Part shown: positions 22,596-63,685 of the stretch, piece by piece
Numbering within the stretch: position 1 is the stretch's first letter
How the letters are laid out: every line of letters begins with the position of its first letter
DNA from: Eledone cirrhosa
Lineage: Eukaryota
Direction of reading: 5' to 3'
Assembly (NCBI GenBank): GCA_964016885.1
Contig: OZ024743.1
Location: 6,324,001 to 6,388,000 of the forward strand
DNA length: 64,000 bases
The notes under the pieces: generated by a model
Database searches by the model: none
Told to the model about the DNA's origin: nothing
Seen by the model: only the letters and a program-made list of their open reading frames with translations
Made by a program: the position numbers and the translations under genes

Positions 22596-22892
22596 CTTTT
22601 TTTGTTTAATATAAGGAACTGTTTCATTGTTTTATTCATTATTTTTTTAATATTTTATCTTGACTCTGTATTCCGTTTATCTTTCACCGAAAGTGATTTT
22701 TCATTGCATCTCTTCTTTCCATGATATCCGGATTACATTGAGTTCTTCATACGGATTGGACACTACCGTAAACTCTTGGTAGATTTATCTACATATATAT
22801 ATATATATATATATATATATATATATATATATATATATATATATATATATATATATATATAATAATAATATATATATACATATATATATATA

Positions 22893-23363
22893 GGCATACG
22901 TCAAAACGGCCGGTCTCAAAAGTGAAACTAATGTTTGACAGTTACGTACACGTTATAAGAGTTATTAAATTTATATATATAAAATAAAGGAGCAAATAAG
23001 AGCATGGTCATGTGTGTGTGTATGTGTGTGTGTGTGTGTGTGTGTAAACGAATGTAAAAGTACACACACATATACACTTATATATGCACACATACACACT
23101 ATAATATATACACGTGTGTGTATATATGTGTGTGTGTGTAAAATTCTAGGAAACCTTATCTATGCCCTACATATATTCTTTTACATTCGTTTACACACAC
23201 ACACACATACACACACACACACACACACACACATGACTAACTTCATATCATGCTCTTATTTGCTCCTTTATTTTATATATAGAAATTTAAATAACTCTTA
23301 TAACGTGTACGTAACTGTCAAACATTAGTTTCACTTTTGAGACCGGCCGTTTTGACATATGCC
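22893..23363. mobile_element. Foldback/MITE with ~170-bp inverted arms in (TA)n
   Basis: GGCATACGTCAAAACGGCCGGTCTCAAAAGTGAAAC... vs ...GTTTCACTTTTGAGACCGGCCGTTTTGACATATGCC; TA on both sides. Confidence 0.75.
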
Positions 23364-24048
23364 TATATATATATATATATATATATATATATATATATAT
23401 ATATATATATTGTTCTGTATAAGTTTGTCAAACGAATGAAGTATTTTATTCAGTTGCAATTTATAATTAAATATGAGAAGAGCTAATTGAAAATATTAAT
23501 TTTCTATGAGTTTTCTAAAATAGAGAAAGAGGAAGTGTGGTATGGAAGTGAAGAATAAATTTTATTAGAAAAAAATATAAAGTAAATATATATGAAGTCA
23601 AATAGAAGAAGAAGAATGTGGTTAGAATGTCTCCTTCTTCACACAGAGACAGAGAATGTATGGCAGGCTGGACATCTCCCAACACAGCCTATATGGATAA
23701 CACCAATGTAAATAAATAAACGTTGCGACTGTCACGTACAAAAGCAAAAACAACTGTTTAAGGCAAAATGCGATTCTCCTACAAAATAAAATCGCCTCTC
23801 GTGATATGTTGTCTCATGAATTTACACTTGTGTAAAACATATGCAGCTTTCTATCGGTTGACAGTTATCTTAATGCCCATTACATGGAGCATATATTTCT
23901 AAGTCAATCGTGAGTGAGGAATTAAAGCACCGATTAAGCAGATTATTTTCGTTTTCCTTAATTAACCAAAATCACAAGCGTCATACATACGAGTATATAC
24001 GATGTGTGAGTGCGTGTATGCACACACACACACACACATATTTATATA

Positions 24049-24580
24049 TGAATGTATGTATAGTATATTTGGCAATATACCGTATGTTTAATTAAACACA
24101 TTTAGAAGAACATACGCTATCAGTTTTCAAGTAGTGACTATGTCGCTTACTTCTTTTCGGCGAAAGAAGGGAGAGAAGCTGACAGTCTGTTTCACGCTGG
24201 TTGGCGTTCATTACAGCTAGTTACTCCCCTGCTTTCGCCGAAAATTATAGAAGCTGGGTTCTTATAGAATTCCAGTGTCAGCTTATTTCCCTTCTTTCGC
24301 CGAAAAGAAGTAAGTGACTATGTCACTACTTTAAAATTGATAGCGTATGGTCTTCTAAATGTTTTTAATTAAACATACGGTATATTGCCAAATATACTAT
24401 ACATACATTCACGTATACATCGCTATTTCAGAGCACCAATCCTAATACCTAATTTTTGCTGGACCGGCAATCGCTCTGTATAATCAGCTCCTGATTATTA
24501 CTGACATTTTATAAGAATTCAGTTTCTATAATTTTCGGCGAAAGCAGGGGAGTACGTGGCTTTGATGAACGCCAACCAGC
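24049..24580. repeat. Interleaved inverted repeats A(24049-24184) B(24196-24266) A'(24276-24411) B'(24510-24580)
   Basis: Reverse-complement matches read directly; each arm contains TTTCGGCGAAA or TTTCGCCGAAA. Confidence 0.75.
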
Positions 24581-59565: not shown

Positions 59566-60318
59566 TTATATATATACATATATATATATATATATATATA
59601 TATATATATATATATATATATATATATATATATATATATGTATACATATATATATATATATATATATATATATATATATATATATACATATATATACATA
59701 TATATACATATATATATATATATATATATATATATATATATATATATATATATATATATATATATACATATATATATATATACATACATATATATATATA
59801 TATACATATATATATATACATATATATATATGTATACATACATATATATATATATATATATATACATACATATATATACATATATATATACATATATATA
59901 TATAGATATATATAGATATACATACATATATATATATATACACATATATATATATATATATATATACATACATATATATATATGTATATATATACATACA
60001 TATATATATATATGTATACATATATATATATATATATATGTATATATATATATATATATATACATATATATATATATATATACATATATATATATATATA
60101 TACATATATATATATATATGTATATATATATGTATATATGTATATATATATATATATATATATATATACATATATATATATATATATACATATATATATA
60201 TATATACATATATATATATATATACATATATATATATATACATATATATATACATATATATATACATATATATATATATATATATATATATATATATATA
60301 TATATATATATATATATA
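59566..60318. repeat. ~750-bp interrupted (TA)n microsatellite
   Basis: Direct reading. Confidence 0.95.
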
Positions 60319-61724
60319 TGGGGAGGAGGGTGATTTTGGACACCCTGCGAGATGAAAAACAAAACCCGTCAAAGGGCGGAGGAACTCAGGAGAGTCAATG
60401 ATCCTCCAATAAAGCTTTCTTTTTTTTGTGGAGCAGGAGATTCCTGATCTTCATTAAGACATCTCTCAAGGATATAAAACCTACGACTTCATTTGCATCC
60501 AATAATATAGACCAGTTCTTCTTTTGGGGTAAATACATTCGGTGTGATAGAGGGACTGGCCCCGTGCAAAGCCTTTCCTCACTTAGAAAAGTTTCAAACT
60601 TAGGCATCGATTGATTGAGCCTTGTACTGCAGTTATGTTGTTGCACCTTTAAACATATCGAATGCAGTACTTATTTCATCGATCTTCTATTATCGAACTG
60701 GTAAGTTACAGGCCTACAAAACGGCTGTTAATCGGTGTAGAGGTAAACACAGAGACAGACAAACTGACAGACAGACACACACATATATATAGATAAGATG
60801 TTACTAATTAAGACTAGTAACACCATTATTCAACTTAGTACTCTATACTTCAGAAAAGTAGAATGTAGATATTATTGTAAGATAGATATGTCCTACCATC
60901 AAACTTATATCGTTTCGGTATTGAAAAACTATACTCGCATGTCTCTCTCTCTCTTTATATATATACATGTATATATTTTATATACAAGGTCTTCTCTAGC
61001 ATGATGTAAAACATAGCTTGGATGGTCTGTCTAAATTGCATGGTGTGCATACGTTTGGCAACGTAATTAATTAAATAAATATTTACACCAGAAGGCAGCG
61101 TGTATTGGACGGTTTAAGATAAGTCTTAATATTTAATTCGTTTCGATTAGAAACGTATGCACATAATACAATTTCAGCTATATTCTACATCCTGTTTGAC
61201 GTATATAATGTAGCTAAAATAAGATTCTGCTATTCACAAAATCATATAAGTAGTTATCTTCTGATGGGGAAACATAAACCTCTGAATTGCGTTGAGGTAA
61301 TACGTTATGTTTGTTGTCTACATAGTAATATAGAAAGTGTTTTTACTTTAATCTCATCACAAAGGCTTCTAATTTAAAAACTATACTTATATCTACATCA
61401 AATTTACCTTATATTCTCTAATACGCGTTGTGTTCTCCCATAAATATTTATAATTCATTTATATACTATTAAGCTTTATAATTGGCTCAAGAGGATAAGT
61501 GATCCAAAACTTGGCGAGTGCTTTGCGTCGAAACTTCAGTCCCTTATGTAGCTTAACAACCAATAAATTATATGTATGTGTATTTTTGTGTATGTTTCTT
61601 GGACTTTTGTTGTCTTCTGTTTGGGGTTCTCTCTCTCTCTCTCTCTCTCTCTCTCTCTCTCTCTCTCTCTCTCTCTCTCTCTCTCTATATATATATATAT
61701 ATATATATATATATATATATATAT

Positions 61725-63685
61725 AACTTATGTTTACCGAATTCACAGACTAGACCCCTTCTTCCTCCCGTTAGACCGGTGCGAAATTCCTTCCTTGCTC
61801 ACATTTCAACCAGGTTTGATGGTCTTTATTCTCTCTCGTTCACGATTTCACCGAACTTATATTCATGGAAATTTTTGGACTTGACTCGCTTTTCCTCACT
61901 TTTCGTTGCTTCACCATCTTTGTTTGTTTACACTCTCGCTGTTCCCTTTATTTACGTGTCCCAACGACTTTCTTTAGCCGTTGCTCGCACCAACCGGAGG
62001 TATATGGTCTTTAAAGCGAAGAAATACCGGTGATGGTTGGAAGATCACTGATGAAGGACCACTTTATTTATATATATATATATAGAAAGGATAACAAGGA
62101 CGATTGATTACTCCTTCATTGCATTTATTGGTAGGTGACGCGCGTTTCGCCACTGATCAGCTCAAGGTTCGATCTGTATCGATCCTACCCGACTCAATAA
62201 TCGGCGGCTCGACGGACCCTTTAAAATGCTATAAGAAAATGAAATACATGCTATGTGGTAAAGCCAGAATTTCAAGAGTTTGACAAAATGAGTTGTTTTG
62301 ATTGGTGGGAAGGATCAAAACAACTCATTTTGTCAAACTCTTGAAATTCTGGCTTTACCACATAGCATGTATTTCATTTTCTTATAGCATTTTAAAGGGT
62401 CCGTCGAGCCGCCGATTATTGAGTCGGGTAGGATCGATACAGATCGAACCTTGAGCTGATCAGTGGCGAAACGCGCGTCACCTACCAATAAATGCAATGA
62501 AGGAGTAATCAATCGTCCTTGTCATCCTTTCAATATATTACACTCTGTATAGCTAGCTCTACACCTCATCACAGAAGTGAACCTAAACATCGAGTGCTCT
62601 CCCGGGTGAACCTGCAGTAACTCCAAGTTACACCCGCTGGATATATATATATATATATATATATATGATAATAATGGAGCTGCGGCGCTGCAAATGGGTT
62701 ACATATGAAAAAGTTTGTCCTCATCAGTGGCCTTCCAACCGTCGTAGGCATTTCGTCGCATTAAAGGCCATATACCTCAGGTTGGTGCGAGCAACGGCTA
62801 AAAAAAAAGTCGTTGGGACACGTAAATAAAGGGGACGCTAGGGTAAACAAACAAAATGGTTTAAGCAGCAGAAAGTGATGAAGAAGGAAACAAGTCCTAG
62901 ATTTCTATGAATATAAATTCGGTGGAATCGTGAACGAGAGAATAAAGACCATCAAACCTGGTTGAAATGTGAGCAAGGAAGGAATTTCGCACAGGTCTAA
63001 CGGGAGGAAGAAGGAGTCTGGTCTGCGAATTCGGTAAACATAAGTTCTGTGAAGTCGCAGACGAAAGAGAGAGAAAAAAATTCATACCGGCTTGGCCAAG
63101 TGCCCGCGAGAAAAGGATTACGGACAGGTCAAACGGGAAGAAAGGGGAGGATGAGAGGTAGTGACAGAGAGTGAGTGAGTGAAAGGTGAGGAAGAGGCTA
63201 ACAGAGAGAGAGACTGCTAGAAAGGGTAAAGACACAAAGAACGAAACAGACTAGTGGCAGCGGAGGAAAAAATATATGTGTAAATATGGTAATAATGGAG
63301 CTGCGGCGCTGCAAATGGGTTACATATGAAAAAGTTTGTCCTCATCAGTGGCCATCCAACCGTCGTAGGCATTTCGTCGCATTAAAGGCCATATACCTCA
63401 GGCTGGTGCGAGCAACGGCTAAAAAAAAAGTCGTTGGGACACGTAAATAAAGGGGACGCTAGGGTAAACAAACAAAATGGTTTAAGCAGCAGAAAGTGAT
63501 GAAGAAGGAAACAAGTCCCAGATTTCTATGAATATAAATTCGGTGGAATCGTGAACGAGAGAATAAAGACCATCAAACCTGGTTGAAATGTGAGCAAGGA
63601 AGGAATTTCGCACAGGTCTAACGGGAGGAAGAAGGGGTCTGGTCTGCGAATTCGGTAAACATAAGTTCTGTGAAGTCGCAGACGA
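61725..63685. repeat. Three copies of a ~400-bp unit: 61725-62065 (inverted, diverged), 62669-63064 and 63290-63685 (direct)
   Basis: Shared text and shared pseudo-ORF NLCLPNSQTRPLLPPVRPVRNSFLAHISTRFDGLYSL; direct copies offset by 621 bp. Confidence 0.85.
62085..62641. mobile_element. PLE hairpin: 218-bp arms (62085-62302 / 62314-62531), 11-nt loop, tail 62532-62641
   Basis: Near-perfect inverted repeat; GCGAAACGCGCGTC hammerhead 3' half; (TA)n flanks. Confidence 0.85.

Follow-up and report, generated by a model that had tools for sequence, protein, structure and literature searches.

Why do Penelope-like element (PLE) insertions so often lie in the genome as two copies joined head to head, with a tail on one side only? 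Their origin has long been puzzling, and in the one clade that has been studied in vitro the protein-binding motif is unmapped. The question is raised by a stretch of 64,000 nt from Eledone cirrhosa (NCBI GenBank assembly GCA_964016885.1, contig OZ024743.1, positions 6,324,001 to 6,388,000, forward strand), hereafter the window, in which tails of PLE insertions open with a bulged stem of the form RCTC-stem-variable loop-stem-TN-GAGY. A sequence-only reading of the window had noticed this stem (copy A) and overlooked a second one (copy B), which sits immediately beyond each tailed insertion and explains where the other insertion end falls. Each stem is probably an RNA docking site, with the element's reverse transcriptase (RT) starting about 6 nt 5' of it.

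All eight strings that had been quoted for the motif were found in place in the window, and five instances were clean, namely those starting at 22663, 38733, 31398, 62542 and 16614. One further instance, given last below, was absent from the earlier list.

38733..38813, plus strand: motif copy A with ACTC, a 9-bp upper stem, a 71-nt apical domain, a TT bulge and GAGT; it opens the 134-nt tail 38726-38859 of the inverted insertion 31567-38859.
22663..22743, plus strand: motif copy A of the same family as 38733; tail 22656-22792 of the inverted insertion 17277-22792.
31398..31422, plus strand: motif copy A with a TA bulge; tail of the hairpin 31037-31390; copy B in loci L143 and L144.
62542..62595, plus strand: motif copy A with a TC bulge; 109-nt tail of the hairpin 62085-62531; copy B in L139 and L140.
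16614..16643, minus strand: motif copy A with GCTC/GAGC and a TG bulge; 107-nt tail of the insertion 16548-17251; copy B in L148-L150.
17049..17062, minus strand: 3' half of copy B of this 16.6-kb family, within the insertion.
2981..3026, minus strand: mutated motif copy A (3' strand AAGC); tail of the hairpin 3031-3175; intact A and B in L154. A copy at 49.0 kb has GAGC and lacks the 5' half.
55182..55201, plus strand: variant with a 1-nt bulge; element clade unassigned.
3293..3364, plus strand: the weakest instance; opposite arm absent from the window, a T.T mismatch in the 2-nt register, unfolded in minimum-energy structure prediction.
52698..52718, minus strand: extra instance with a TC bulge.

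Tails were gathered independently of the motif, from inverted repeats that abut a TA run on one side and carry a 20-250-nt extension on the other, and were scored with a strict pattern (RCTC, at least 3 upper pairs, a 1-3-nt bulge and complementary GAGY, within 30 nt). In 1.06 Mb of the genome including the window, which yielded 76 tails in 32 families, the strict pattern was met in 38 tails and in 18 families, the family representative having been picked to carry the motif whenever any copy did. Shuffled controls gave means of 0.08 tails and 0.07 families (maximum 2), and background windows matched in 63 of 17,052 cases. A second set covered 1.46 Mb with 102 tails in 38 families. Held-out families from this set, those without a copy in the window, had the strict motif opening the tail in 14 of 31 cases, against 0.16 in shuffles (maximum 2) and 0 in the arm-sequence control. 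These results indicate that the motif is not as frequent in shuffled or non-tail sequence as in tails. The families had been called unrelated, which holds at the level of DNA and fails at that of protein, where six open reading frames (ORFs) were 42-55% identical to the first in the alignment.

Copy B came to light in copies that read on past the end of the tailed insertions. One family, found by protein search, had near-full-length copies that showed, in order, a hammerhead, motif A, a spacer, motif B and the ATG; in this family B began 7 nt past the tailed-insertion end in the 8 listed of 9 read-through copies. Altogether, copy B was present in read-through copies of 8/9 families, one by protein search and seven by pattern searches; the latter returned 386, 2, 307, 5, 669, 432 and 62 matches, some chance and double matches included. 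For the 55182 family, the pattern search for the tail end plus RCTC gave no read-through copy. At the loci that were read, RCTC was closed by TN-GAGY and followed by the start of a Hydra-type ORF, the 16.6-kb family excepted. Copy B always had the form GCTC-C...G-TN-GAGC, with 6-106 nt between.

In one case, a 183-nt unit comprising motifs A and B only, without the hammerhead, formed an array of 5.7 identical copies (L208:1109-2146, G000:C2), the 3' end of which lay 5 nt before A. The array has the look of a small circle reverse-transcribed in a rolling fashion, with DNA-level duplication as the alternative. At L140, 5' of the match, one family's arm and 5' stem strand were joined to the 3' strand of a different family exactly inside motif A; this chimera suggests template switching at the motif.

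Insertion ends were then located relative to the two copies by sequence anchors in the unbiased 1.46 Mb, the junction intervals being blurred by target microhomology. The count covered 7 families and set aside 24 short and 1 long read-through copies, as well as 9 short and 4 long ends without a microsatellite. Position -6 before copy A lay inside the junction interval in 21 of 37 short ends, and position -6 before copy B in 35 of 48 long ends; in both cases it was the mode, and -5 or -6 was touched by 22 short and 36 long ends. The motif had been placed 2-10 nt from the start of the tail, and its fixed position there stands, with an offset tighter than that range and a mode of 6 nt. Other spacings varied two- to four-fold (78-138 nt from A to B, 35-145 nt from B to the ATG, and 48-89 nt from the hammerhead GAAA box to A). 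Start sites usually had 1-5 bases in common with the (TA)n target. Contigs from one public run, possibly of the same sample, showed (TA)n loose ends at L133:1396 and L133:1533, which at maximal overlap are 4 and 5 nt before A and B, respectively.

The two kinds of end were also paired with each other. Inverted insertions of motif families were long+short in 62 cases, short+short in 1 and long+long in 2, with 18 unresolved, and the largest family was long+short in 22/22 inverted pairs, while short and long ends were similarly common overall (111 and 113). Families without the motif gave long+short 23, short+short 0 and long+long 1. Since they pair their ends alike, the pairing rule is general, and the motif would be the Hydra-clade solution to it. 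Among distinct insertions, 7 had the longer, ORF-bearing copy on the long end and 3 had it on the short end, and the window holds one of either kind; thus neither copy arises in all cases by folding back from its partner.

Pairing within the motif was examined in 30 instances picked by sequence anchors alone, with no pairing rule; 16 of 38 families lacked an anchor and were omitted, and 5 wrong-partner or doubtful picks were retained. The first pair was complementary in 27/30 instances (14 G-C, 13 A-T), compared with 15.0 by permutation, which bears out the proposal of a selected structure with covariation. The three upper pairs were complementary in 24, 21 and 17 of the 30 (11.5, 9.7 and 7.7 expected by permutation), and with A copies alone the first pair was so in 20/23 (12.2 expected). 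GTTC/GAAC in two families represents, by eye, a compensatory change at the second pair. The bulge read TT in 15, TC in 7, TA in 6 and TG in 2, its T having belonged to the anchor, and the bases that follow the stem tend toward NCT. In accepted instances the apical part spans 6-106 nt, which fits a fold better than a duplex-DNA site. The predicted folding of the motif was moderate, not striking (z -1.1 to -3.0).

Judged by their sequence features, the motif-bearing families with an ORF are Hydra-clade PLEs and not Naiads, as had been assumed. Their ORF starts with a Hydra N-terminus and ends with the endonuclease, and a hammerhead is present, whereas a Naiad has an N-terminal endonuclease and no canonical hammerhead. 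Every motif family with an ORF remnant had a C-terminal GIY-YIG endonuclease and a CxCx5C linker; by eye, the endonuclease had no CCHH and carried CxxC and CxH beside a conserved E and N. Full ORFs showed the Hydra-type N-terminus, RW(R/I/K) and DKT. The defining marks of the clade were taken from PMC8557442. The elements further had a hammerhead in the pseudo-long terminal repeat (pLTR) and a (TA)n target, TA flanks having been a selection criterion. Rfam Hammerhead_1 scored 29.1 bits (E 2.2e-5) at L106:518-562, below the gathering score of 34; the other hammerheads were identified by eye. The protein search returned 344 relatives among 8000 scored, and Pfam did not recognise the endonuclease remnants. 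The strict motif was not found in three families with CxxC-type (Neptune/Nematis-like) endonucleases, one of which has a doubtful look-alike; most of the remaining motif-less families have no ORF and are hence unclassified. In the window, the relevant features were the following.

34282..34977, plus strand: 3' remnant of a Hydra-type ORF with CxCx5C linker and GIY-YIG endonuclease (CxxC-E, N-CxH), on the long-end strand.
20820..21038, minus strand: endonuclease remnant of the same family as 34282, on the short-end strand.
38511..38665, plus strand: hammerhead-like motif 5' of copy A (core at 38521, GAAA box at 38644, 10-bp stem I), by eye.

Equivalent putative hammerhead-like motifs were seen by eye at 22451/22574 and, inverted, at 31771 and 17481. 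The 31398 family had a hammerhead core at 31291 with GAAA at 31334, and the 62542 family a hammerhead-like core at 62456. The stem II region of the motifs at 38521-38656 and 22451-22586 is about 115 nt, much longer than in the minimal PLE type. The L110 and L114 ORFs, from a family with a natural intact ORF open for 870+ codons, carry long Asn/Ser/Arg-rich insertions between RT and endonuclease (residues ~480-630 and 690-740), of a kind described for rotifer Penelope elements. Full tandem Hydra arrays occur at G000:C1:91476605-91487271 and C1:126844064-126857484, with periods of ~3.5 kb and 6.5-6.9 kb.

With each kind of end about 6 nt before its own copy, it is likely that the stems show the RT where copying is to begin. 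Alongside the observed positions, end pairing and covariation, we infer protein binding, cDNA priming and joint use of both stems, as set out below. This reading is helped by the anole element PAc, whose RT begins internally at two positions coinciding with the tail ends and depends on RNA 3' of them (PMC11167929). The RT-endonuclease protein would bind each stem, and its endonuclease would nick both strands of the (TA)n target. Each nick would pair with 1-5 TA-like bases at a start site and serve as primer for a cDNA, with A and B giving rise to one each. These cDNAs would halt at different points and be joined head to head via their 3' ends. The tail would then be the A-B spacer, copied solely by the cDNA begun at B, and with one cDNA start per stem the tail length would equal the motif spacing. 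This might be done by two protein molecules acting as a dimer on a single RNA, or in two events, one after the other. A more specific version, which we put forward tentatively, is programmed twin priming in Hydra-clade PLEs, in which the duplicated RNA signal keeps two RT active sites together on a single transcript, with one start ~6 nt upstream of each copy, primed from opposite (TA)n nicks, and in which the A+B module alone, as in L208, suffices for mobilisation. If this were true, placing any RNA 5' of the module could allow it to be copied into TA microsatellites, beginning at an internal position of choice.

Several points weigh against this reading. At 37 °C the predicted pair probability of copy B was 0.00-0.22 in 4/7 families, against 0.17-1.00 for copy A. 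Copy B often had only 1-3 upper pairs, and two of the four listed B copies of the 31398 family carried a mismatch. The antisense strand was predicted to fold about equally well, and the bias of G.U over A.C was slight (9 vs 4 cells, 7 vs 2 families). The families are related, so the permutation P values overstate independence. The pattern searches for B demanded RCTC past the tail end, leaving the closing strand, the constant distance and the ORF start as the only free tests. Ends missed -5/-6 in 15/37 short and 12/48 long cases, and family discovery relied on long+short pairs, adding at least one such pair per family. Finally, the stem-loop of PAc is without the motif.

The same fixed offset would also result if the motif directed an RNA cut ~6 nt 5' of each copy, by a host nuclease or an element protein, with the RT starting at the new 3' ends. 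PAc RNA-seq read ends do coincide with start sites, yet PAc starts internally on uncut RNA in vitro (PMC11167929). Separate cut RNAs should give mixed pairs, yet long+short made up 62/65 of the resolved ones, and no matching ribozyme family was found; we consider such a cut unlikely.

Quite unlikely, in our view, is that the motif acts in DNA, where extruded or single-stranded element DNA would fold and the GIY-YIG endonuclease would cut 6 nt away when resolving an insertion intermediate. Craig et al. do attribute tails to endonuclease-mediated resolution (PMC8557442), the Penelope tail was required for endonuclease recognition (cited in PMC11167929), and both strands fold alike. However, a 4-bp stem closing up to 106 nt would hardly extrude from duplex DNA, the sense strand slightly prefers G.U pairs, and copy B is missing from tailed insertions and so must have been on the template.

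If only B marked a start, the cDNA could fold back and second-strand synthesis could stop at A, which would then be a true boundary element. This would yield long+short pairs only; many hairpins have palindromic centres, and self-priming has been proposed (PMC3846280). We nevertheless hold it to be improbable, as the longer copy was on the short-end strand in 3/10 distinct ORF-bearing insertions, including 17277-22792, which fold-back cannot produce; moreover, a single mechanism is suggested by the -6 offset that A and B have in common, and the L208 array ends at A. It is highly improbable that the stems serve to regulate how the ORF is translated or transcribed, with ends nearby for another reason such as AT-rich microhomology, for although both copies sit in the 5' leader and an overlap of 1-5 bases between start site and (TA)n target is usual, the ends follow the motif and not the ATG or the hammerhead, and many other TA-like leader sites go unused.

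Two RNA stems that each position the RT would have partial counterparts in known systems. In telomerase, the template-boundary element is located 5' of the template, where it brings synthesis to a halt. The motif had been likened to it, an analogy that fails on position, since the stem sits 3' of the first copied base (at the insertion end, on the ORF strand), on the opposite side from a boundary element. Both have a helix whose distance to the limit of a template is fixed, a related RT and short primer-template pairing at the start, but the Hydra stem occurs twice, at the position expected of a template-recognition element. [quoted passage not shown] The Hydra stem, as proposed, would resemble these in recruiting its own RT in cis; its synthesis would start 5' of the stem, so that each stem would be left out of the cDNA it starts.

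Among PLEs, PAc (Penelope/Poseidon clade; Frangieh et al. 2024, PMC11167929) is similar in its two starts matching insertion ends, its need for 3' RNA and its AT-rich target. It differs in that its starts are within the ORF at a spacing of 30-40 nt, and that its stem-loop is AC-rich without RCTC/GAGY, no repeated motif being reported in the available part of that paper; the Hydra-clade starts here lie in the 5' leader, 78-138 nt apart, with one stem after each. The protein marks, hammerhead and (TA)n target agree with the Hydra-clade PLEs of Craig et al. 2021 (PMC8557442), who ascribe a 30-40-bp tail to endonuclease resolution and, in the part available, describe no such structure. By eye, 3 of 6 Hydra consensi published there have the full motif, namely Hydra-2_Amil (coral), Hydra-2_Ajap and Hydra-1_Ajap (sea cucumber), the last of them twice before the ATG; Hydra-1_Crog (copepod) has a variant, and in Hydra-1_Amil and Hydra-1_Obim it was not clearly present. 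Scans for Hydra elements gave two weak 46-aa matches in metagenome contigs and none in viral contigs, so the evidence from other species consists of these six consensi.

Hydra hammerhead stem III is often ACTC-N-GAGT (Craig File S2), the same 4-bp helix sequence as the tail motif. An alternative hammerhead stem III was considered for the motif and rejected, as no catalytic core surrounds it and the true stem III here differs in sequence. GAGC plus the following G also do not fit the hammerhead cleavage rule. SECIS, twister, hairpin and HDV-like readings were dropped by eye, their cores being missing. Rfam placed no family over the motif, with only chance scores at the level of small nucleolar RNAs and none over the motifs among the 150 matches listed of 392. 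The motif was undescribed in the literature searched, which included the available parts of PMC11167929, PMC8557442, PMC3846280, PMC7229834 and bioRxiv 10.64898/2026.07.22.740005, most subscription literature and Repbase lying outside the search. RNA stems that recruit an RT are already known, and what is new is a duplicated stem that would fix both insertion ends. The result is a defined signal common to this genome and to published coral and sea-cucumber elements, with a rule in which the start is ~6 nt before each copy and the tail equals their spacing. It may help to get at how a telomerase-related RT selects internal templates, allow Hydra annotation and classification from DNA alone and, possibly, serve as a programmable start signal.

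The window also holds other elements. Two copies of a PLE family with a CxxC-type endonuclease lie at 28189-29831 and 49495-51817; their 53-63-nt tail is without the motif, and a hammerhead lies inside the arms (28338-28372 and 29659-29693). A decayed, GC-rich Neptune-like PLE ORF occupies 39169-41165, and a Mariner-type transposase fragment (Pfam PF01359) lies on the minus strand at 55877-56293. At 3885-9334 there is a Gypsy-type long terminal repeat (LTR) retrotransposon, the LTRs of which are 96% identical, adjoined by a second retroelement remnant; 75 nt of its LTR resemble 53319-53392 and 55047-55120.

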